Source: Armatimonadota bacterium
GTDB taxonomy: Bacteria; Armatimonadota; UBA5829; DTLH01
NCBI GenBank assembly: GCA_039680575.1
Contig: JBDKSP010000047.1
Span: forward strand, 1 to 53,950
Reading direction: 5' to 3'
DNA length: 53,950 nt
A program made the position numbers and the translations under genes. Shown piece after piece: positions 8,679-50,940 of this stretch (position 1 is the stretch's first letter; each line of letters opens with the position of its first letter). The notes beneath the pieces are model-generated. The model saw only the letters and a list, made by a program, of their open reading frames with translations, made no database searches and was not told the DNA's origin.

Positions 8679-8689
8679 ATAACGTTGAT

Positions 8690-9014
8690 AGACCGAGGGA
8701 TCCATGCCTCGGTCTGAATTCTCCCGGGCATCCATGCCCTGCACATAATTGAAAGTGGAGTCTTTCGCTAGTTCCTCCACAGGAAACAATGACGTTGGCA
8801 AATCGATTCCGTGTCCAAGAGAATAATTTTCCTTATTTCATTACGAGTGCAGTTACATATTAGCTGCCATGCATGTGGAAATACTCCTGTGCAGGATTTT
8901 ATTATAAAGAAGAGGAGCCGGTTATTCCGGTCAGTCCTCTGATGTGGTAGATTGGTTAAGGGCATGGATGCCCAGGAGAATAAGGCTCGGGGCATGGATC
9001 CCCCGAGCCATCAG
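8690..9014 (+). mobile_element. Non-autonomous RAYT-derived element, family A (inverted REP doublets flanking an internally deleted transposase)
   Basis: GGATCCATGCC/GGGCATCCATGCCC hairpins at 8690-8740 and their reverse complements at 8960-9009 around a RAYT remnant. Confidence 0.7.
8789..8950 (+). pseudogene. Internally deleted REP-associated tyrosine transposase (RAYT) remnant
   Basis: MTLANRFRVQENNFPYFITSAVTY*LP (RAYT-like N-terminus with W->TAG) fused in frame to WKYSCAGFYYKEEEPVIPVSPLMW* (RAYT-like C-terminus); HUH core missing. Confidence 0.7.
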
Positions 9015-9073
9015 CAACGCGAAAGAAAAAGACTTTGTAAGCAAGCAGGCTGGAGCGCGGCTGGTGGGTTGAT
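9015..9073 (+). repeat. Diverged second copy of the flavodoxin gene 3' end
   Basis: Matches 8594-8680 with a 27-nt in-frame deletion and synonymous substitutions. Confidence 0.85.
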
Positions 9074-9108
9074 GTTTTACTATAAGTATGAATTAAGGGG
9101 GGATAACT

Positions 9109-10524
9109 GTGAGATATGTTTTAAGGCTATTTCTGTCTGTAATTCTTTTATCCGGCTTCCTCTTGCCATCAGAGGCTGTTATTCTTCAGCCGGGAACGTA
9201 TAAGCTGGCCTGGACTACATCCGAAGACATCAGCAAAACCACTTGCCAGTTTTTAGAACTTGATTTAGCTCCGCAGGATAATGGTGTACCTGCCATAAAT
9301 GGACTGAAGTCTGCCAAATATCTTCGATGTGGACCCGATGAAGATTGCTACTTAAGGATGGTTCTGGATGAGTCCAAGGGAACAGGCAAAGGCTACGATG
9401 TTGCATACATATCACTAGCTGCATCAGGTAAATTGACTGATGTAGCTCAGGCCATCAAGCTGCCGCTAAGGAAAAGCAACAACGCTCCACTGATGTGGAA
9501 AGATGTCAAAGTGCTGGAATCCGACAAATTCACACTGGACATACCTTACACATCGTCAAATATCATACGCAAAACTACTATTTCGCTGGAGATCGATATA
9601 TTCGACGATGGCAATATAACCGGCACTGCAGCAATAAAGCTCTGGTCGGGCTGGAGCGGGGTTATCAAGACAGATGGCGAAGACCTGAAAGTCATCCTTG
9701 ATGATCAGAATGCAGATGGGCTATTCGAGAAAAATTCATCCAATCAAGCAATAGACGGTACAACTCCGTGTTTGAACGATTATATATGGATAGGCAGGCA
9801 TAATGGGCAGTGCGAATGCGGCGAATGCAAGTCCTTTATGCTGGGAGGCGTTTCATCCTACGATAACAAGCTCTATATAATCAATGTTAAGCCGTCAGGT
9901 GAAGAAATTGAGATTAAGCCCTATACGGGACCAAGCGGAACGGTAATACTCAATGCTATCGACGGCTACAATAAACCAGCAAAGTGCGGCGCCACCATTC
10001 ATGGTAAAGAAGGGTTTTTCAAACTGCTGGATAACGGCAAAGAAACGCAGATCCCTGCCGGTGTTTACAAGACATCACCGCTTTTCATTATCGAACCTGA
10101 GCAAAACAAGGCATCGGATAAAAGAATCTCCATTTTTCAGAGAGCCAACCTTGAAATAACAGTCCAGCCTGAAAAAGCAGTCACAATAGATGCTGGCGGA
10201 CCTGTCACTTTATCTATTAATTCGGAAAAAGACGCTGTCACGGCAAAAGCCGGCCAGGAAATAAAAATTTCCCTTGATATAAAGATAAAAGATGAGAAGG
10301 CAGTTATTCTCAGCGAAAAGAATCCTGTTATAAGCATCTATAACTCTGCCGGTAAGCTGCTAAAGAGCGGCAAAGGGGAGTTTGGGTGAGGCGGAGTCTG
10401 TGAGTATTCCGTGCGAATACCTTCGAATTGGAAACCAGGCACCTATAAGATCAGTGCAAGCATCGATTTGAGGCCCTACCAGGATCAAATCGATGCAAAG
10501 AAGACTCTGAAGATCGTAAAGTGA
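9109..10524 (+). CDS. Secreted hypothetical protein, probable selenoprotein (Sec at TGA 10387-10389)
   Basis: Signal peptide; frame stays open 44 codons past TGA (GEFG-U-GGVCEYSVRIPSNWKPGTYKISASIDL...) to TGA 10522-10524; SECIS-like hairpin. Confidence 0.72.
10390..10425 (+). promoter_or_regulatory. Bacterial SECIS-like hairpin
   Basis: GTATTC-CGTGC-GAATAC (10404-10420); loop starts 20 nt after the UGA, with G at loop position 2 followed by U. Confidence 0.55.
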
Positions 10525-10551
10525 GCTCAGAACGAAAGGTAGCCGAATTTA

Positions 10552-10971
10552 ATGTCGTCAGAATATATCGTTATTGATACACAAGAAGCAATGGATAGAT
10601 TCTTGTGGCTCGTAGATGGCTTCCATGATGCCTTACTTAGGGAAGTTGGTATAGTCTCACAAGGCTACGTCGATACTGGAGATATGTATGGTGATGTTGC
10701 CCCAAGTGATATGAGATTGATAATCCATTCGCAATTTGAGGAAACACCATATATCGAGATAATATTCAGAGAGCTTAAGGAATTCAAATGGATCGATGGC
10801 TATGATCTGGAACCAGCAAAAGGCTCTGTTGCAAATGATCTCGTGACACTTTTCTTTAGTTCAAATTCTAAGAATTTTTTAGTTTCAGGGAAACAGATGG
10901 AATACAGGATATTAGGCCGTGATTGCTTGGGCAAGCAACCTCGCACAGTTGAACAGATTCAATCAGAATGA
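10552..10971 (+). CDS. Hypothetical acidic protein (immunity-protein-like)
   Basis: 139-aa ORF, AAAGGT RBS, FHDA motif; no firm family. Confidence 0.65.
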   Translation: MSSEYIVIDTQEAMDRFLWLVDGFHDALLREVGIVSQGYVDTGDMYGDVAPSDMRLIIHSQFEETPYIEIIFRELKEFKWIDGYDLEPAKGSVANDLVTLFFSSNSKNFLVSGKQMEYRILGRDCLGKQPRTVEQIQSE

Positions 10972-10978
10972 AAAAAAG

Positions 10979-11077
10979 GTTGATAAACCGAGGTATCTTG
11001 CCTTAGTCTAGGGATTGGTTAAGGGCATGGATGCCCAGGAGAATAAGGCCTGGGGCATGGATCCCCCAGGCCATCAG
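10979..11077 (+). repeat. REP family A: degenerate left hairpin joined directly to the right end
   Basis: GTTGATAAACCGAGG.. resembles 8685-8715; GATTGGTTAAGGGCATGGATGCCCAGGAGAATAAGGC.. is nearly identical to 8950-9014. Confidence 0.85.
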
Positions 11078-11098
11078 TGTATAAATATGCGAGGTATT

Positions 11099-11668
11099 AT
11101 GGAAGATAAAGAAATCCCTCTCCTTATAGCCCATATTGAGCGTTCCCTGGGAAAAATGGATGATTATCGCAAAGATACGGACGATAAGAATCCATTTATC
11201 CTAGTCACAGCCTACAAAAACCAGCCTTGCGAGGATTGCACTACGTTAGTGACATTAGGGTTAAGTAATCATCTGTTAAATCGAGATGGTCGGGATTACC
11301 GAATGGAATTGATTCTGGCGTTTCAGAACTCAGTACTTTATTATGACGCCGTTTCTCTCCTGATGTCATTTGGACAATATGTAATAACTAAGCATAAAGC
11401 GTTACTTCGGGGCGATGTAATTGGTCCGGCTACACCGATTATGCCAGATATAAAGATGACCGCTCTCTATGCTTCATGTCCCACCATATTCGATGATGAT
11501 CTGGCTGTTTTTGAAGAAAGTGATCCTCCTACGATTTTCGTCTGGTTACTTCCGATATATACCAAAGAAGCTGAGTTTATATACGAGAATGGGTGGAGTA
11601 TATTTGAGGATATTCTTATAGAAAAAGACCCTAATTTGCTGGATTTTCATAGGGAAAGCATTGTGTAG
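11099..11668 (+). CDS. Suppressor-of-fused (SUFU) domain protein
   Basis: TLGLS, ELI, RGDVI, WLLPI..E..F...GW..FE..L pattern; GAGGT RBS before ATG 11099. Confidence 0.85.
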   Translation: MEDKEIPLLIAHIERSLGKMDDYRKDTDDKNPFILVTAYKNQPCEDCTTLVTLGLSNHLLNRDGRDYRMELILAFQNSVLYYDAVSLLMSFGQYVITKHKALLRGDVIGPATPIMPDIKMTALYASCPTIFDDDLAVFEESDPPTIFVWLLPIYTKEAEFIYENGWSIFEDILIEKDPNLLDFHRESIV

Positions 11669-11691
11669 GACAAGTCCTATCCATCATGTGC

Positions 11692-11729
11692 AAAAAGCCC
11701 GGAAGGTGTTCCCTCCGGGCTCTTATTTT
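11692..11729. terminator. Bidirectional terminator between SUFU gene and groEL
   Basis: AAAAGCCCGGA-..-TCCGGGCTCTTATTTT. Confidence 0.7.
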
Positions 11730-13848: not shown

Positions 13849-13980
13849 TAGGTAGATGAGGATTTTGGGGATGTGGGGTGGATGGTCCCAGTTTTTCAGG
13901 TCCGGGACCACATTTAGAAGCTATTAATTACTGTTGGCGAGCCTTCATTTTCTCAGCAATATGAGCGTTTGATGCCATCT

Positions 13981-14010
13981 GCGCTTCGGCGCAAAAAAAC
14001 GCGCCGAAGT
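13981..14010. repeat. Solitary REP family H palindrome
   Basis: CTTCGGCGC-N8-GCGCCGAAG, same family as 14678, 14894, 40471 and 42628. Confidence 0.8.
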
Positions 14011-14670: not shown

Positions 14671-14930
14671 TTGGAATGCTTCGGTGCGATTTTTGCGCCG
14701 AAGCCCCCGTTCTCGACGTCCACGGCCTGAATGTGCCGTGGCTACCATCCGTCTACGCGGTCATCGCCAATGGACCAGTCCCACAACTATACAAGGCATG
14801 AACTCTACTACCGAACTGGTCCAGAAGCAGGCTACGCCATCATATACACGTTATGATGTCTCTTTGATGTCAATGCTGCATATCCGATAGATTGGCTTCG
14901 GCGCAAAAGGCACGCGCCGAATCATACCAA
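14671..14930 (-). mobile_element. Non-autonomous RAYT-derived element, family H (260 bp, empty form)
   Basis: Terminal GCTTCGGCGC..GCGCCGAA palindromes, imperfect 19-bp terminal inverted repeats, internal RAYT-like N- and C-terminal stubs; both ends recur at 40464-40587 and 42610-42663. Confidence 0.7.
14742..14873 (-). pseudogene. Internally deleted, frameshifted RAYT-like remnant
   Basis: MTSKRHHNVY/DGVACFWTSSVVEFMP joined to LYSCGTGPLA/DRVDGW*. Confidence 0.55.
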
Positions 14931-21885: not shown

Positions 21886-21961
21886 ATTATCACAACGTCA
21901 TGCTGAGCTTGACTCAGCATCCAGGAAGAAAATGGACCCTGAATCAAGTTCAGGGTGACGT
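21886..21961 (+). repeat. REP family B doublet (GTCATGCTGAGCTTGACTCAGCATC / GACCCTGAATCAAGTTCAGGGTGAC)
   Basis: 76 nt identical to 48421-48496; interrupted inverted copy at 50748-50911. Confidence 0.92.
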
Positions 21962-22215
21962 GCTGGTTATTCAGGTTGATGTACAATCTCTCATTAAGAG
22001 TGAACTCTTACTCAAATTGCCACTAGCAGCTCAGGCGTTTTGTCATTTATACGCGAACAATCGGGCTTCAAGTTCCAACTTAGTTTAATTTATACCATGC
22101 AGTTATAGGGTATATGAAATTGCAGTCAGAATGATTATGTTAGGATTATTACGAATAGGAGATGTATAGAAATCCAAACACTGGTTTTGTGCGATGTAGA
22201 TGGGGTGATGATAAA

Positions 22216-33322: not shown

Positions 33323-33398
33323 GACAGTCCTGGCTGCCGAATGTGAACCACTCCTGTTTGACCTGCGGAGGCGGTTTTGGGGTATCGGTTGGCCATGC

Positions 33399-33488
33399 CT
33401 ATAGATTTTCGGCTATTTTCTTGGCAACCGATCGTATACCAGCTATCGCCGAAAATCTTCCGGGAGAGTTTCAGGTGTTACCTGAAAC
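33399..33488 (-). repeat. Repeat family E (short first hairpin)
   Basis: Reverse complement contains CCTGAAACTCTCCCGGAAGATTTTCGGC..GCCGAAAATCTATAG. Confidence 0.8.
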
Positions 33489-36487: not shown

Positions 36488-36585
36488 GTTCTGTGATTAC
36501 AGAGTATCTGCTCTTAATAGCGGGCCAGCTTGGTGTTAGTGGCCGGACTCTACCCATGGTTGCTACCAGAAACGGAGACTACTTA

Positions 36586-36747
36586 GAGAGTTTCAGGAGA
36601 TAAAGTAACAGCCTTACAGTTATATAAACAGTTCTCTGATATAGCTTTATCTGTTGATTTTACACTTACACCTGAAACTCTTCCGAAAGATTTTCGGCAA
36701 CAGCCAATATATGATTGGCCGTTAATTAATCAGCCGAAAATCTATAG
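36586..36747 (+). repeat. Repeat family E, full two-hairpin copy
   Basis: AGAGTTTCAGG..CCTGAAACTCT then AGATTTTCGGC..GCCGAAAATCT. Confidence 0.8.
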
Positions 36748-36891
36748 TCACGGAATCCACTTTTCCTCAGCTCAGCACATATTGCGGCAAGATATTTACA
36801 AACTGGATGCCTACTGGTTTGAGTGTTTACACCACCGGGTAACGCATAATCGAGCAAGCGAAGCGGGATTAAGAGCTGATGGAGGCCCAAA

Positions 36892-38110: not shown

Positions 38111-38120
38111 GTTACCTACT

Positions 38121-38204
38121 GAGTTTCAGGCGATAATACAACAGCCTTACAGGTATATAACAAGTTCCCGATGCTGTTGATTCTGCACTTATACCTGAAA
38201 CTCT
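38121..38204 (+). repeat. Repeat family E, first hairpin only
   Basis: GAGTTTCAGG..CAACAGCCTTACAGGTATATAA..CCTGAAACTC. Confidence 0.8.
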
Positions 38205-39105: not shown

Positions 39106-39264
39106 GTGTTTCATGTGATGATCAACAGCCTTACGGGCATATAACCAGTCCTTGATGCTGCTGTATCCGATGACTTTACACTTACCACTGAAAACTCGCT
39201 CGGAAGATTTTCGGCAATAGCCCGTATACAATTGGTTGCTGAAAGAACAGCCGGAAATCTATAG
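39106..39264 (+). repeat. Repeat family E in the ASCH gene leader
   Basis: CAACAGCCTTACGGGCATATAA..GGAAGATTTTCGGC..GCCGGAAATCTATAG. Confidence 0.78.
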
Positions 39265-40050: not shown

Positions 40051-40126
40051 GGGCGAATAGCTCAGTTGGGAGAGCGCTTCCCTTACAAGGAAGATGTCGG
40101 GGGTTCGAGTCCCTCTTCGCCCACCA
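40051..40126 (+). tRNA. tRNA-Val(TAC)
   Basis: Cloverleaf, CTTCC-CTTACAA-GGAAG anticodon arm, CCA end. Confidence 0.97.
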
Positions 40127-40134
40127 AAGAACGC

Positions 40135-40211
40135 GGGGGTGTAGCTCAGTTGGTTAGAGCGCCTGCCTGTCACGTAGGAGGCCGCGGGTTCGAGTCCCGT
40201 CATCCCCGCCA
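40135..40211 (+). tRNA. tRNA-Asp(GTC)
   Basis: Cloverleaf, loop CTGTCAC, CCA end. Confidence 0.97.
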
Positions 40212-40228
40212 TTTTGTTTTTTGTGCCT

Positions 40229-40304
40229 GCCGAGATAGCTCAGATGGTAGAGCAGTGGACTGAAAATCCACGTGTCCGCAGTTCGATTCTGCGTCTCGGC
40301 ACCA
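40229..40304 (+). tRNA. tRNA-Phe(GAA)
   Basis: Cloverleaf, loop CTGAAAA, CCA end. Confidence 0.97.
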
Positions 40305-40309
40305 TGCCT

Positions 40310-40385
40310 GCCGATGTAGCTCAGTTGGTAGAGCAGCGCATTCGTAATGCGCGGGTCAGAGGTTCGAGTCCTCCCATCGGCTCCA
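40310..40385 (+). tRNA. tRNA-Thr(CGT)
   Basis: Cloverleaf, loop TTCGTAA, CCA end. Confidence 0.96.
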
Positions 40386-40401
40386 GATTTGAGCTCAAAC
40401 T

Positions 40402-40426
40402 AAGCCCCCGATAAGGGGGTTTTTTA
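40402..40426 (+). terminator. tRNA operon terminator
   Basis: AGCCCCC-GATAA-GGGGGTT followed by T run. Confidence 0.8.
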
Positions 40427-40463
40427 TTGTCTCCCCACAGCTCACAAACACCGCGTCAATCCT

Positions 40464-42663
40464 TTGAAATGCCTCGGCGCGATTTTTGCGCCGAAGCCCC
40501 CACTTTCGACGTCCACGGTCTGAATGTGCTGTGACTACCATCCGTCTACACTGTCTATCACTAAAGGGCCTGCCCCATTGCTATACACTGTTAATTATTG
40601 CACAGTTTTGATCTTCATCCTCTCAGCTGTTACCTCTTTGATCAGTTCTTTCTCCCTGTCAGGAGAATATATAGGAAAAGCTACATTGAATGAAAACTTT
40701 ACCGGCTCCTTACCGCCATGAATCTCAACTGTGTATGTGTGCCTCTCAAGTCCATCATAATCCTGTTTCGTATCCTCGACCAGCTTCATATACAGCTTGG
40801 ATATATCCACTTCAGGTCTGGATTCGGCGGGGAGTGAATTGAAGAGCTCCTTGAGCTGTTCGGTGTCGAGGTTTGCTATGTTCGCTAAATATATACCAGA
40901 ACCATAAGCAGTGTTCAGATCGTCCACACTCATTGCAGCCAGTATATTCAACAGAGCCGCATGAGTCATATATTTTGCCGACACAAACCTATGTAAATCT
41001 TTAACAAAACAAATCCAATCAAGCTCCTGCCCGTCCGTCAATCTCCACATTGCCAGGAAATCATAAAGCTCAAGTCCTGAGCTTCTTGCACTGCTCAACC
41101 AGTCCGCAAACGATGCCTTCGGAACCAGATTATTATACCTGTCAGCCCAACTCCAGGCTTTAAGATCGATCAGCTTGTTTTCTTCGCTGATATACCATTT
41201 GAATACACGCTTGATGCCCAGCGACCACTTTACATCTACCAGAGACTTCTTTCCGTTGAATATATCCTTGTAAGCATCAGGAAGTGTGTCTTTATGGTCC
41301 ATATAATCGTCAGCAAGAATACTGCGGCCGGTCGTCTTCGATATCTCCGTTAACACATCAGCAAGCAGAATTGTTTTATTATCCATTTTATTGAACTGAT
41401 ACTTTTTATCCGGCTCTAATTTATCATTAGTTGCAGCTTTCAGAAATCTCATCTCAAATGTCGGTTGTTCGGGATGCTTAGGAAAGACTGGTCGGTTCGA
41501 ATCTGCAGCAGTCAATGGTTGTTTTGTATTATTGGGAGCAGATTGTTGCTTTGTGCTTTTTGAAATTGACAAACGGTCCAAAGCCGAACTAAAGCTTAAT
41601 ACATCACCGAGAAATCCCATAGAATGAAATGGACCTGCAGACACTGAAGAATTAAGTGATAATCCATTGCTTGCATCTAGCTTAAAAGCTATCTGTGCAT
41701 TCTCCAAGTCAGGTGTAACAGGTTCATATATAGTTCGAACCTTGCGTCGAACACCATTGCTGTCAATTGTTTCTACCTCACGATTTGCATCATAGTTGCC
41801 CGTAACATCGAATATTTCCTTTTTCTGAAGGACAAAGTCCTGCACCATCTTCCCGATATCGCCGCCCTGCTTAACGCTTAGTATAATTTCTTCACCATTT
41901 AAAAGCCTGGACATTCCTTCATCGCCTATAGCTTTAATCAGTCTGCTATAAGAAACTATTTCGTCGTATCCAAGCCTTGATGTGCCCGGTCCATATGCTC
42001 TAGTACAATCGGGAGATACTGCGTTAGCTTCATTATAGACCTTTTCAACCTCTTCATCTGATAGAGAAGCCATCCAATTGAAAAGCTTCCATCTGTATAA
42101 CTCTCGTTGCATTTCAAGGTTTGCAATATTATCGTTATATTTGCTTAATAGATCCTGATATACTTTTGGCCTGTAGAACCTGTATAGTGTCTCACCATCT
42201 ACATCAGTCTTTTTCAATGCAAGGTAATACGCATCAGTCATCAGGTTAAGGAGCTTTCCGACTTCTATATCGTTGGCACACACCACAACCGGCATATCCC
42301 GCACCTGCCAGTCATTACGGGATATACCTGCGGCTATCTTGATGCCGGATAGCTTGCTGATCTCAGCCACAGCATCGCTTAAGCGGACATATCCGCTGTA
42401 GTAGGTGATTTTCTTGCTTAGTCTTGTGTCACTTTTCTCGGCTGCATAGCTTCCGGTTAACATGCAAGCCATCAGCAGCATTACGAGCGATATTCTTCTG
42501 TTCATAGTTCTCCTCCTGAGGAAAATCCGGCATCTATACATAAAAAAAGCCCGAAAGCACTACCTTACTCTGCAAAACATAAGTTGCAGCCCATGGTGCT
42601 GCTTGTATGTGCATATCCATAAGATTAGCTTCGGCGCCAAAGGCTCGCGCCGAAGCATTTCAA
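40464..42663 (-). mobile_element. Family H RAYT-derived element carrying a cargo gene
   Basis: 18/19-bp terminal inverted repeats; both ends homologous to 14671-14930; RAYT C-terminal stub at 40535-40587; interior is a secreted-protein gene. Confidence 0.68.
40595..42505 (-). CDS. Secreted hypothetical protein with secretin-N-like repeats (paralog 1)
   Basis: AGGAGGAG RBS before ATG 42505, signal peptide, RLSKKIT..LSDAVAEISKLSGI and LADVLTEISKTTG..ILADDY segments. Confidence 0.8.
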   Translation of the reverse strand: MNRRISLVMLLMACMLTGSYAAEKSDTRLSKKITYYSGYVRLSDAVAEISKLSGIKIAAGISRNDWQVRDMPVVVCANDIEVGKLLNLMTDAYYLALKKTDVDGETLYRFYRPKVYQDLLSKYNDNIANLEMQRELYRWKLFNWMASLSDEEVEKVYNEANAVSPDCTRAYGPGTSRLGYDEIVSYSRLIKAIGDEGMSRLLNGEEIILSVKQGGDIGKMVQDFVLQKKEIFDVTGNYDANREVETIDSNGVRRKVRTIYEPVTPDLENAQIAFKLDASNGLSLNSSVSAGPFHSMGFLGDVLSFSSALDRLSISKSTKQQSAPNNTKQPLTAADSNRPVFPKHPEQPTFEMRFLKAATNDKLEPDKKYQFNKMDNKTILLADVLTEISKTTGRSILADDYMDHKDTLPDAYKDIFNGKKSLVDVKWSLGIKRVFKWYISEENKLIDLKAWSWADRYNNLVPKASFADWLSSARSSGLELYDFLAMWRLTDGQELDWICFVKDLHRFVSAKYMTHAALLNILAAMSVDDLNTAYGSGIYLANIANLDTEQLKELFNSLPAESRPEVDISKLYMKLVEDTKQDYDGLERHTYTVEIHGGKEPVKFSFNVAFPIYSPDREKELIKEVTAERMKIKTVQ

Positions 42664-42692
42664 CGATTTATACTTTTATCGGTTTTGTTTTA

Positions 42693-44567
42693 TTACTTGA
42701 TCTTCATCCCCTCAGCCGTTGCCTCTTTGATCACTTCCTTCTCCCTATCAAAAGAGTAGATGGGAAAAGCTAAATCCAAAATAAACTCCAATGGCTCCTT
42801 GCCGCCATTAATCACAATTGTGTAGGTGCGTTTCTCGACATTAAAGTCCAGTATCTTATGCTCAACTAGCTTCATGTATAACTGAGATATATCTCCGGCA
42901 GGTCTGGATTCGGCAGGGAGCGTATTGAAGAGCTTCTTGAGCTGTTCAGTGTTGAGGTTTGCTATGTTCGCCAGATATATACCGGAACCATAGGCTGTAT
43001 TCAGCTCGTCCACGCTCATTGCTGCAAGTATGTTCAACAGAGACTCATGCGCCATAGATTTATCTACTATAAACCTCCGTAGGTCTTTAACATCCTGAAT
43101 CCAATCAAGCTCCTGCCCGTCCGTCAATCTCCACATCGCCAGGAAATCATAAAGCTCAAGTCCCGAACTATTTGCTTTGTCCAACCAATCCGCAAACGAT
43201 GTCTTCGGAACCAGATTATTGTAATTGTCAGGCCAGCTCACGGGTTTCAGGTCTATGAGTTTGTTTTCCTCATTGATATACCATTTGAACCTATACTTGA
43301 TGTCTGACGACCACATCACATTCACTAGAGACTTCTTTCCGGTAAAGACATCTTTGTAAGTACCAGGCTTAATATCACGATGGTCCAGATAATCATCGGC
43401 AAGGATGCTATAACCGGTAGTCTTCGATACCTCAGTCAAGACATCAGCGAGTGTAACAGTCTCTTTGGCAGGTTTCTTGAACTCGTATTTTGTTTCAGGC
43501 TTCAGTAAGTTGTTGGATGCATCCGTCAGGTATTTCATCTCGTACATGGGCTGCTTTGAATATTTTGGAAATACCGGCTTTTCAGACGATTTTGATGTTG
43601 ATTGGGGGTCTAAATCCTTAGGAGTCGAGGACTGCTCCAGCGCTAAAGTAAAAGAAGTTAAATCCCCAAGAAACCCTTCTGCGTAAAATGGCCCAGCGGA
43701 TACTGAAGATTTAAGTGATATCCCATTTGTTGAGTCCAACGTAAACTTGATTTGCGCTTGCTCGAGATCTGGCGTTTCTGGCTCAGGTATAATTTCAGTG
43801 TAGGATGGTAAGGGATTGCCATGCTTATCCATTAATACAGATTTGCTGATCTCGGCAACGAGTGCATCGACTATCTCCTTCTTCTGAAGAATGTAGTCTT
43901 GTACCATCTTCCCGACATCGCCGCCTTGCCCGACACTTAACGTAACATCTTCACCGTTCATGAGCTTGGCCATTCCCTCTTCCCCGAGGGATTTGATCAA
44001 CTTGCTGTATGAAACTACCTCGTCATATCCCAACCTTTGTGAATCCGGTCCATAGAAACTGAGGCAGTTTGGATTTTTCTGGTTAATCTGCTGGTAGAGT
44101 TTCTCAACATCCTCGTCCGAGAGAGAGCCCATCCAGTCATATAGCTTCCATTTGTATAGTTCACGCTGATATTTGTAGCTCTCTTCCTTGTCGTTAGCTT
44201 TGCTCAATATATCCTGGTATATCTTCGGACGGTAGAACCTGTAGAGCACCTCACCGTCTACATCGGTCTTCTTCAGCGCCAAGAAGTATGCATCAGTCAT
44301 CATATTAAGAAGCTTGCCGACTTCTATATCGTTAATGCACATCACGACAGGCATGTCCCGCACCTGCCAGTCATTACGGGATATACCTGCGGCTATCTTG
44401 ATGCCGGATAGCTTGCTGATCTCAGCCACGGCATCGCTTAAGCGGACATATCCGCTGTAGCAGGTGATCTTCTTGCTTAGTCTTGCGTCACTTTTCTCGG
44501 CTGCATAGCTTCCTGTTAGCATGCAAGCCAGCAGCAGCAGCATTACGAGCGATATTCTTCTGTTCAT
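42693..44567 (-). CDS. Secreted hypothetical protein (paralog 2)
   Basis: Same RBS and N-terminus as 40595-42505; colinear throughout. Confidence 0.8.
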   Translation of the reverse strand: MNRRISLVMLLLLACMLTGSYAAEKSDARLSKKITCYSGYVRLSDAVAEISKLSGIKIAAGISRNDWQVRDMPVVMCINDIEVGKLLNMMTDAYFLALKKTDVDGEVLYRFYRPKIYQDILSKANDKEESYKYQRELYKWKLYDWMGSLSDEDVEKLYQQINQKNPNCLSFYGPDSQRLGYDEVVSYSKLIKSLGEEGMAKLMNGEDVTLSVGQGGDVGKMVQDYILQKKEIVDALVAEISKSVLMDKHGNPLPSYTEIIPEPETPDLEQAQIKFTLDSTNGISLKSSVSAGPFYAEGFLGDLTSFTLALEQSSTPKDLDPQSTSKSSEKPVFPKYSKQPMYEMKYLTDASNNLLKPETKYEFKKPAKETVTLADVLTEVSKTTGYSILADDYLDHRDIKPGTYKDVFTGKKSLVNVMWSSDIKYRFKWYINEENKLIDLKPVSWPDNYNNLVPKTSFADWLDKANSSGLELYDFLAMWRLTDGQELDWIQDVKDLRRFIVDKSMAHESLLNILAAMSVDELNTAYGSGIYLANIANLNTEQLKKLFNTLPAESRPAGDISQLYMKLVEHKILDFNVEKRTYTIVINGGKEPLEFILDLAFPIYSFDREKEVIKEATAEGMKIK

Positions 44568-44602
44568 AGTTCTCCTCCTGAGGAAAATCCGGCATCGACA
44601 TA

Positions 44603-44709
44603 AAAGAAAGCCCGAAGGCACTACCTTACTCTGCAAAACACAAGTTGCAGCCCATGGTACTGCTTCCGGGCTCGACTTTAATATATACTCCCTACTGCTC
44701 GGCTGTCAA
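44603..44709 (-). promoter_or_regulatory. Promoter and structured leader of paralog 2
   Basis: TTGACA-N18-TATATT followed by long hairpin AGCCCGGAAGCAGTACC..GGTAGTGCCTTCGGGCT and T-rich tract. Confidence 0.55.
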
Positions 44710-44779
44710 TGTCACTGGAGCTTAAATATATGGTAAACTACGATGCAGTCGCTTATGGTTATCGAGGAGGATATGCCTG

Positions 44780-45877
44780 TTGAAAAAAGTATACATCGCC
44801 GCAACACGGCAGAATGACGGCAAGACCATCACATGCCTCGGACTTATCTCCGCGTTCAAAAAACGCTTTGCGAATGTCGGTTACATCAAGCCGGTAGGCC
44901 AGCGGTTCATCGAAATCGAGGGACACAAGATAGATGAAGACGCGCTTTTGGTCAATGAAGTCTTCGGTATCAATGGCGACATTAGTGACATGTCGCCGGT
45001 TGCCGTACCCCACGGGTTTACCGAGTCATATATCGAAAATCCTAACCGGGAAGCCCTCGTCACGGCCATCATGGACGCTTTCGGGCGGATCTCCGCGGGT
45101 ATGGACGCGGTCCTGGTCGAAGGAACAGGCCATGCGGGAGTGGGATCGGTCTTCGATATGTCGAACGGCGATGTCACGAAGATGCTCGGCACGAAGGTAG
45201 TGCTTGTTTCGGCAGGCGGCATCGGAAGGCCGATAGATGAAATAGTGCTGAACAAGGCCATGTTCGACCAGTTCGGGGTGGAAATCATCGGCGCAATCAT
45301 AAACAAGGTCCAGCCGGATAAATACGAGAAAGTGAACCGGGTCGTGCGCAATGGACTGGCGCGTAAAGGGATCGAAACGTTCGGCGTTATGCCGTACAGG
45401 CCGGTGCTCTCGAACCCAACCATCGGCCAGCTATTGAATGACATCGACGGCGAACTGCTGTCCGGTAAATACGGGCTTGAGAACTCCGTCTCCCGTATGA
45501 TTATCGGCGCTATGCCGACACACGAAGCGCTGGACTATTTCAGCCCGGACACACTGCTGATAACACCGGGCACGAGAGAAGACCTCATACTCGCCGCTAT
45601 GAGCTCGTATGTCGTCGGGTTGAGCGCGAACCACTGTGTTTCGGGGATTGTCCTGACAGGAGGGACTGCGCCGCATCACAACATTATGGAGCTCATTAAA
45701 CGGACCAGAATACCGGTAATCCTGGTCGAAGAAGATACATTTACCGTGGCAACAAAGATCGACAAGCTGATCGTTAAAATCCGGTCTGGCGATACGGAGA
45801 AAATACAGGTCTCGGAGCAGTTGATCGAGGAATTCGTGGATGTGAATCGGCTGCTCGATATGCTGGACGAAGGATAA
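44780..45877 (+). CDS. BioD-like ATPase + DRTGG domain protein (phosphotransacetylase N-terminal-like)
   Basis: QNDGKT P-loop, GYIKPVG, VEGTGH, ITPGTRED, VLTGG. Confidence 0.88.
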   Translation: MKKVYIAATRQNDGKTITCLGLISAFKKRFANVGYIKPVGQRFIEIEGHKIDEDALLVNEVFGINGDISDMSPVAVPHGFTESYIENPNREALVTAIMDAFGRISAGMDAVLVEGTGHAGVGSVFDMSNGDVTKMLGTKVVLVSAGGIGRPIDEIVLNKAMFDQFGVEIIGAIINKVQPDKYEKVNRVVRNGLARKGIETFGVMPYRPVLSNPTIGQLLNDIDGELLSGKYGLENSVSRMIIGAMPTHEALDYFSPDTLLITPGTREDLILAAMSSYVVGLSANHCVSGIVLTGGTAPHHNIMELIKRTRIPVILVEEDTFTVATKIDKLIVKIRSGDTEKIQVSEQLIEEFVDVNRLLDMLDEG

Positions 45878-48420: not shown

Positions 48421-48496
48421 ATTATCACAACGTCATGCTGAGCTTGACTCAGCATCCAGGAAGAAAATGGACCCTGAATCAAGTTCAGGGTGACGT
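48421..48496 (+). repeat. REP family B doublet
   Basis: Identical to 21886-21961; shared downstream TCTCTCATTA.GAGTGAACT. Confidence 0.92.
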
Positions 48497-48624
48497 CTCT
48501 ATTGTTCAGGGTGACGTGCTTCCATCTATGGTGATGTGTTTGGTTGTGCAATTTGATGTAAGATCTCTCATTACGAGTGAACTGTTACAAAAGTAGAGCT
48601 GACCGATAATAATACATAATCGAT

Positions 48625-50747: not shown

Positions 50748-50940
50748 GTCACCCTGAAACTCTCTCGGAAGATTTTCGGCTATAGCCGATAATCCATAGA
50801 TTCAGGGTCCATTCGTATGCTTCGGGATCGCTTTTCATCCCGAAGCACAAGTCTCCAATAATTTGATAAGCTTTCCTGGATGCTGAGTCAAGCTCAGCAT
50901 GACGTTGTGATCACAGGCTGGCAAGGAGACCGGCCACAAC
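50748..50940. repeat. Nested repeat mosaic between nurA and herA
   Basis: Inverted family B doublet with family E and F units inserted, plus GACCGGCCACAAC unit. Confidence 0.82.

Follow-up and report, generated by a model that had tools for sequence, protein, structure and literature searches.

RAYT-derived MITE pieces as boundaries of gene exchange in an Armatimonadota genus

Pieces of a RAYT-derived MITE form the boundaries of gene exchanges between two sister species of Armatimonadota, which is a known kind of phenomenon but new in this form. The case analyzed most closely lies in a window of 53,950 nucleotides (the whole stretch of DNA that was analyzed), where a gene for a secreted protein, gene A, stands between two such pieces and next to its paralog, gene B. 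The original prediction was that the element ends had captured this gene and could move it. Gene A most likely came by recombination at repeated right ends and not as the cargo of a jumping shell, and host recombination at dispersed repeats is, on balance, the likeliest engine of the REP-bounded swaps described below.

The genome of the window (G000, 97% complete) was compared with that of the sister species (G001); both are incomplete metagenome assemblies. The comparison covered 2.07 Mb of the roughly 3.1 Mb of G001, with REP-bearing contigs favored, and used genes predicted by a purpose-made simple gene caller; 1.56 Mb could be aligned, at 87%. In addition, contigs (and only contigs) were used from the probable source run of the window (X1) and from three further runs (X2, X3 and X4), of which X2 belongs to another study and has a backbone 99% identical to the window. 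The features of the window are collected in Table 1.

Table 1. Features of the window, in window coordinates
Feature	Position	Strand	Remarks
Solitary REP of the MITE's family	13984..14009		Near the groES/EL synteny breakpoint; the G001 alignment stops at 13910
Full 260-bp MITE	14671..14930	+	Fused N- and C-terminal RAYT stubs between a pair of inverted REPs
tRNA operon Val-Asp-Phe-Thr	40051..40385	+	Adjoins the element in G000; in G001 followed by an HD-type gene region instead
Left half of RAYT-derived MITE	40464..40587	+	Made up of a REP hairpin (40472-40496, foot AATG), a spacer and the C-terminal stub of the RAYT
RAYT C-terminal stub YSNGAGPLVIDSVDGW*	40535..40585	-	Translation of the left end's minus strand
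Gene A, 636 aa	40595..42505	-	3' third like G001 gene X; 5' two-thirds unlike
Putative crossover zone in gene A	41240..41256		Corresponds to 43326-43342 in gene B; gene X turns from A-like to B-like
Truncated leader copy fused to right end	42506..42604	-	Identical fusion in G001
Right half of MITE	42610..42663	-	Hybrid: inner part as in G001 right2; hairpin (42629-42655) and outer flank as in right1
Tail, right end to gene B	42664..42692		In G001 comes after right1 (5-bp indel)
Gene B, 624-aa paralog	42693..44567	-	Reciprocal mosaic to gene A
Full leader	44568..44779	-	Divergent from DRTGG/AAA_26 (pta-like) gene at 44780

The repeat ends and their parent RAYT

As originally proposed, both ends of the arrangement align with the full element at 14671-14930: over 124 bp, the left end (40464-40587) agrees at 83% with 14671-14793, and the right end (42610-42658/63) matches 14877-14930 at 83–86%. 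The terminal inverted repeat was recomputed as the same 18/19 bp, and the left and right hairpins fold better than 200 of 200 shuffles. On its minus strand the 260-bp element encodes a RAYT N-terminus fused to a RAYT C-terminus, and over 25 aa the N-stub shares 76% identity with the RAYT of locus L078. The element is multi-copy (three full copies in G000 and one in G001, plus many halves), keeps both ends and has lost the transposase interior. Sequence comparison confirmed that the two ends are halves of an internal-deletion derivative, of about 260 bp, of a subclass-2.6-like REPtron. G000 has 30 copies of this family's REP hairpin, and the compared part of G001 has 31; the bases ahead of its AT[GA] foot vary, and the GT[AG]G foot of canonical REPs is absent from this REP and the parent element. 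Among 401 genomes of the phylum, the MITE interior query matched three, G000 being one of them, and the interior DNA pattern had no match in metagenome contigs.

An intact RAYT gene, P0001, was found on a metagenome contig, L287. Its product ends WYTEGRGPLAIDAVDGW, and the same hairpins as those of the two ends lie on both sides of the gene, which supports the earlier identification of the stub as a RAYT C-terminus. The predicted protein of about 186 aa has NHLH, WK in place of WQ, YVHENP and an SS tail motif; the Y1 HUH transposase motifs (HuH, Y---NP) are thus present, and the gene lies between inverted cognate hairpins that recur genome-wide. Its match to NF047646 (E=1.5e-18, 67 bits) falls under the 80-bit NCBIfam cut-off for RAYTs, its clade relatives match Y1_Tnp, and none of the solved structures matched it by sequence. 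The motifs fit TnpA-REP subclass 2.6 as characterized by Quentin et al. 2018 in the available portion of PMC6006769.

The intact RAYT that had been sought therefore exists in L287, whereas none was found with the queries used in the incomplete assemblies of G000 and G001, so that the active cognate enzyme presupposed by the original prediction did not emerge from either genome. Candidates for an intact cognate RAYT are present in G004, G006, G018, G021 and G035. The Y1 genes of the two genomes are about 30% identical to P0001, and the two in G000 (L001 and L002) were rejected as the cognate RAYT as they fall into other clades and have different repeats on either side. The sequence at C122:18535-18834 was also rejected, being a second deletion derivative with type-2 REPs. 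The locus around it (G000 C122:18435-18890) is of the same RAYT clade as P0001 and represents an independent deletion derivative, with aa ~1-59 fused to 144-184 and type-2 REP flanks; a similar relic (L058) is present in G007. Another genome, G033 (L100, L101, L102, L107), has 59 Y1_Tnp matches and contains near-identical RAYT-like ORFs in tandem arrays, many of them frameshifted; these could be genuine multicopy arrays of RAYT-like genes, or else the assembly may have produced them. In G025 (L089), two tandem RAYT-like copies are apparently identical at both ends.

The junctions of the element are variable. Inner ends of left halves are spread from about 53 to 184 along it and only 40587 coincides with the N/C fusion point, at odds with the idea of shared inner breakpoints; a second left half at the fusion point (G001 C30) turned out to be a multi-deletion artefact. 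On the foot-bearing strand, CA precedes both inner junctions of the pair around gene A as well as the MITE deletion junction, and a TG-ending foot could select CA by analogy with the system outlined in the accessible part of PMC8266576. Nevertheless, among 22 junctions, scored with a filter that left out the window locus's own, CA was found exactly at one and within 2 bp at four, with no dinucleotide preference, and a CA-cleavage signature was rejected. Microhomology is seen at some of the deletions. Target duplication, predicted to be lacking, is absent at the 40464/42663 pair and at four full MITE copies, but its absence at the first of these carries no information, since a rearrangement breakpoint forms the outer flank on the left. 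The predicted co-variation of the ends (TTGA/TTGG) held for four of four pairs in G000 (40464, 14671, C11, C93) and for neither of two in G001; the type follows two MITE subfamilies.

Genes A and B and the sister-species allele

Gene A is a complete secreted-protein gene with an RBS, a signal-like N-terminus and a truncated leader, and is a paralog of the gene just outside the ends (67.7% protein identity to B), both as predicted. The family is Armatimonadota-specific and of the secreted type; a Pfam/NCBIfam search gave no match, and weaker Atlas rows suggest STN-like domains. The leader had no match in Rfam, and a riboswitch reading was dropped. The suggestion that the elements expand surface-protein families was not supported, since a MITE-family REP is near only four of ten family members in the two genomes (A, B, gene X of G001 and one further G001 paralog). 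Gene A does not have the stop position of B and X and extends three codons into a 20-bp spacer (40588-40607), which has inverted ends and is part of neither the MITE nor the tail. The stretch after tRNA-Thr (40386-40430) resembles C24:41290-41350 of G000, where G001 continues from the tRNA operon; this looks like a split integration site or a rearrangement scar.

In G001 the order is groES/EL, a left end (1-116) joined to a right end (right1), the tail, gene X, a truncated leader, a second right end (right2) and a 371-aa beta-propeller gene (Y), which is followed by the full leader and the pta-like gene; contigs of runs X3 and X4 show the joints of this layout. The left end is thus joined to the orthologous right end without gene A, an empty-site allele of the expected kind but not a precise one, as its breakpoints are 116/~222 versus 124/~207. 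In addition, the fusion of leader and right end in G001 stands outside any left-right pair. At the window's right end, the inner sequence and leader fusion correspond to right2, and the loop, outer flank and tail to right1. Perfect homology at this hybrid is only ~10–15 bp, which is short for RecA. In run X2, one contig joins 44710 to 45888, and the pta-like gene is apparently missing there.

Of the sites where A and B differ, 134 lie up to 41240, and gene X agrees with A at 89 of them; of the 321 from 41256 to 42296 it agrees with B at 259, and of the 15 beyond 42296 with A again at 11. At its extreme 3' end the first ~15 such sites are B-like. The turn from A-like to B-like is similar in runs X2, X3 and X4, and A and B are reciprocal mosaics relative to X. 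Run X2 contains a single A-3'/B-5' gene (94% and 89% identity), with a left half that runs into sequence unlike the window. Because the X2 strain also has one such gene, the single gene looks ancestral, a polarity that rests on two genomes and run contigs; given the B-type and A-type extreme ends of X, G001 could also descend from a two-copy state. The right1/right2 hybrid and the reciprocal mosaics together suggest a duplicated unit, bounded by two direct-repeat right ends, that entered via one crossover inside the resident gene.

These observations can be combined in a model. A subclass-2.6-like RAYT would once have spread the hairpin REP and the 260-bp deleted REPtron copy, both of demonstrable RAYT origin judging from their sequences, through the genus, and the scattered co-oriented pieces would now serve as portable homology. 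A donor with the layout kept in G001 (right1-tail-gene-leader-right2) would have undergone a crossover of its two direct right ends, which released the unit, presumably as a circle, or tandemly amplified it and gave the hybrid right end. One homologous crossover near 41240-41256, within coding sequence, would then have put the unit into the resident gene; this probable order of events would yield two reciprocal mosaic paralogs with the hybrid right end between them. The donor-type layout and the mosaic pattern are directly visible in the aligned alleles, which we read as traces of this exchange. The left half would merely abut the 3' end of the resident copy, and the left-gene-right shell would be a by-product and not a unit that moved. 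Recombination by the host, also acting on incoming DNA of relatives, would likewise produce the other REP-bounded swaps and the 3.4-kb tract described below. The 25.8-kb block between two left ends was considered as one integrated circle and rejected, since it maps to at least three G001 contigs.

Other REP-bounded swaps and the genome-wide break test

The link between the repeats and gene gain or loss, part of the original prediction, holds beyond the missing gene A of G001. In contig C121 of G000, a 152-aa gene lies between two direct REP-doublet copies, where G001 (C64) has one copy and no gene; this locus and the right1/right2 unit are the direct-repeat-bounded genes with filled and empty alleles. 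In G001, a 155-codon ORF of C62 lies inside paired hairpins where C89 of G000 is empty. This ORF is the one other cargo found within such ends, and its breakpoints differ from those of the pair around gene A; different cargos with matching inner breakpoints had been named as the decisive check. Between matching core genes, the REP-punctuated arrays of C106 and of G001 C34 contain entirely different genes. Crossovers map in or beside hairpins at three loci, with no fixed base, and the same cassette or unit was not found at two sites.

Only one tract of at least 99% identity was detected in the 1.56 Mb aligned: C93:22082-25465 of G000, which corresponds to L025:2042-5445. In the assemblies, on which this comparison is based, it has 17 differences in 3,384 bp (99.5%), and its flanks are at ~90%. 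The tract starts 7 bp before one REP hairpin and stops at another, and it contains a 1,094-aa MFS fusion with 46% GC that is frameshifted in G000 and had no full-length close relative among 59 other genomes with the query used (best matches at most 32% over parts). We interpret it as a recent 3.4-kb transfer between the two sister species.

The association was also analyzed across 1,240 orthologue adjacencies, 46 of which were dropped as uninformative. Initially, junctions with a MITE-family REP showed a gene-scale break in 18 of 21 cases, versus 139 of 929 for repeat-free junctions. In a stricter test, rearrangements less than 2.5 kb from a G000 contig end were dropped and one split gene was reclassified; the controls were repeat-free junctions that were broken or had a gap of at least 150 bp. 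MITE-family REPs were then at breaks in 11 of 15 cases versus 117 of 269 controls (p=0.03, uncorrected, small numbers). This exceeded the frequency of breaks at type-2 REPs (18/55; p=0.007, uncorrected) and at a presumed IS66-type MITE (25/58; p=0.046, uncorrected), and the comparison with another REP family gave 12/24 versus 11/15 (p=0.19, uncorrected). In convergent gaps the REP enrichment was not significant (6/7 versus 26/42, p=0.40).

G000 carries dozens of dispersed repeat families in all. Within the window, a second REP family (of the GGGCATGGATGCCC type, 8686-11727) bounds G000/G001 indels, namely a 2.8-kb insertion in G001 and a SUFU-domain gene in G000, and the RAYT of this family (L002, L090) is at different loci in the two genomes. 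Other dispersed repeats are at 21886-21982, 33393-33487, 36580-36753, 38113-38200, 39123-39264, 48421-48517, 50753-50802 and 50873-50911.

Alternative explanations and known systems

Host recombination is supported by the right1...right2 layout of G001, the hybrid right end and the mosaic A/B/X sites in the window, by the C121 gene between direct REP doublets with a single copy in G001, by junctions without a dinucleotide preference together with the lack of a detected intact cognate RAYT in G000 and G001, and by the occurrence of breaks at other repeat families (25/58 for the presumed IS66-type MITE). Counting against it are the ~10–15 bp of perfect homology at the hybrid right end, the higher frequency of MITE-family REPs at breaks than of other repeats, and the CA that precedes the window's inner junctions and the MITE deletion junction. 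An unlikely but consequential alternative is that subclass-2.6 RAYTs are cassette recombinases: the HUH enzyme, perhaps present only transiently or until recent times, would nick single strands near direct REPs, excise the gene between them as a single-stranded circle and rejoin it at another REP. The only tract of at least 99% identity is bounded by hairpins, although just 24 of 1,692 intergenic gaps contain a MITE-family REP, and this is what such an enzyme might produce, as are the different-gene arrays of C106 and G001 C34 within the same core genes and the filled and empty alleles at C121 and at G001 C62 versus C89. Furthermore, 60 of 70 genes flanking REPs are co-oriented with the RAYT stub (counts that are not independent), 22 of 42 G001 genes beside a MITE-family REP are without a G000 homolog versus 463 of 1,770 overall, and for E. 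coli TnpA-REP the available text of PMC3333891 describes distant cleavage and recombination and proposes that genes are sequestered. However, an intact cognate RAYT was not found in G000 or G001, the junctions have no common position or dinucleotide, no cassette occurs at two sites, viral contigs had no match to the exact REP pattern, and relaxed selection in variable regions would yield equal enrichment.

A further reading is a passive association, in which REPs and foreign genes gather in insertion-tolerant gaps, deletions trim the elements and the repeats are non-causal. REP-free gaps of at least 150 bp are broken at 117 of 269 junctions, breakpoints vary, some deletions have microhomology, and the convergent-gap enrichment is not significant; all of this would follow, yet the hybrid right end, the direct pair at C121 and the position of both 3.4-kb borders in or a few bases from hairpins would not, and we consider this reading improbable. 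A non-autonomous left...right REPtron shell that took gene A in place of its transposase and moves as a unit seems quite improbable. Gene A does occupy the place and orientation of the RAYT, with the left junction at the MITE fusion point and both ends of the TTGA subfamily type, and G001 joins left to orthologous right without the gene; at G001 C62, too, an ORF stands between paired hairpins where C89 of G000 is empty. But this shell occurs once, adjoining its own paralog and with a right flank orthologous to that of G001, the breakpoints of the empty allele differ, the leader-right fusion of G001 lies outside any left-right pair, and capture of a copy would not give reciprocal A/B mosaics. 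Very improbable, finally, is an assembly chimera of co-occurring relatives at the window locus or the 3.4-kb tract. The assemblies are metagenomic, near-identical N-terminal repeats break contigs, and the tract is seen in assemblies alone; on the other hand, X1 contigs span tRNA-left end-gene A and leader-right end-gene B at a uniform 26–35x, the single-copy depth, which argues against mis-assembly but is not independent support. In addition, the G001-type long contigs of X3 and X4 are not among the listed pieces of X1, the middle of gene A is uncovered in X3 and X4, and the tract differs at 17 sites between G000 and G001.

If subclass-2.6 RAYTs did act as cassette recombinases, Armatimonadota would have a scattered integron that needs no integrase and serves secreted and membrane proteins, with insertion also into a sister species. 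The benefit of RAYT-REP systems to their hosts, an open question according to the accessible part of 10.1101/2021.07.10.451892, would then be accounted for. The intact enzyme-hairpin pair (P0001 in L287), of a subclass whose biochemistry the consulted papers do not report, makes the matter directly testable, and the genus offers base-level cases in the hybrid join, the filled and empty alleles and the recent hairpin-bounded tract shared across species. Should host recombination drive the swaps, the finding would be a more ordinary one, with scattered repeats that provide portable homology for the exchange of genes.

Integron cassette arrays and CALINs consist of co-oriented single genes with imperfect palindromes between them, and their contents vary among relatives. 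The loci described here are similar in having co-oriented genes between imperfect palindromes and in differing in content between relatives. The difference lies in the spacers, here REP/MITE pieces whose inner ends vary, and in the right end, which departs from the attC core consensus. Tandem duplications of enterobacteria reportedly have REP join-points. Common to these and to the window is a hybrid REP at the join of the duplicated segment, whereas here the repeats carry RAYT stubs and the copies are divergent alleles, which implies foreign DNA. Effects of REPs on recombination and amplification are cited in the available text of 10.1101/2021.07.10.451892. Our literature search on REP join-point duplication, RAYT cargo and integron-like RAYTs, with most subscription journals outside its reach, found no description of the present system, and the accessible parts of PMC3390384, PMC3733652 and PMC3686654 describe no cargo system.

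The MITEs and TIRtrons of Di Nocera et al. 2013 (PMC3733652), as far as the available text goes, are likewise non-coding elements of 70–300 bp that go back to a transposase unit and have inverted repeats at their termini. In contrast, the ends here are self-complementary hairpins, target duplication is absent, and the GGGGWSAS motif was not seen. The E. coli TnpA-REP/BIME model (Ton-Hoang et al. 2012, PMC3333891, accessible portion) proposed that circles form and re-integrate at REPs already in the genome and that genes on their flanks are sequestered; REPtrons were reported not to move as units. That enzyme cleaves at CT next to a GTAG foot, whereas here the foot resembles (A/T)ATG, the search for a cleavage signature gave none, and genes of 0.5–3.4 kb make up the units. 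The closest relative appears to be REPtron subclass 2.6, or Bertels group 5, with which P0001 shares the motifs, the length of ~186 aa and the inverted hairpins without GTAG, and which is described as atypical in the available part of PMC6006769. As presented there, subclass 2.6 is mainly from Bacteroidetes, whereas the P0001 system is in Armatimonadota, where 260-bp MITE-like derivatives keep both stubs and their pieces bound gene-scale swaps.
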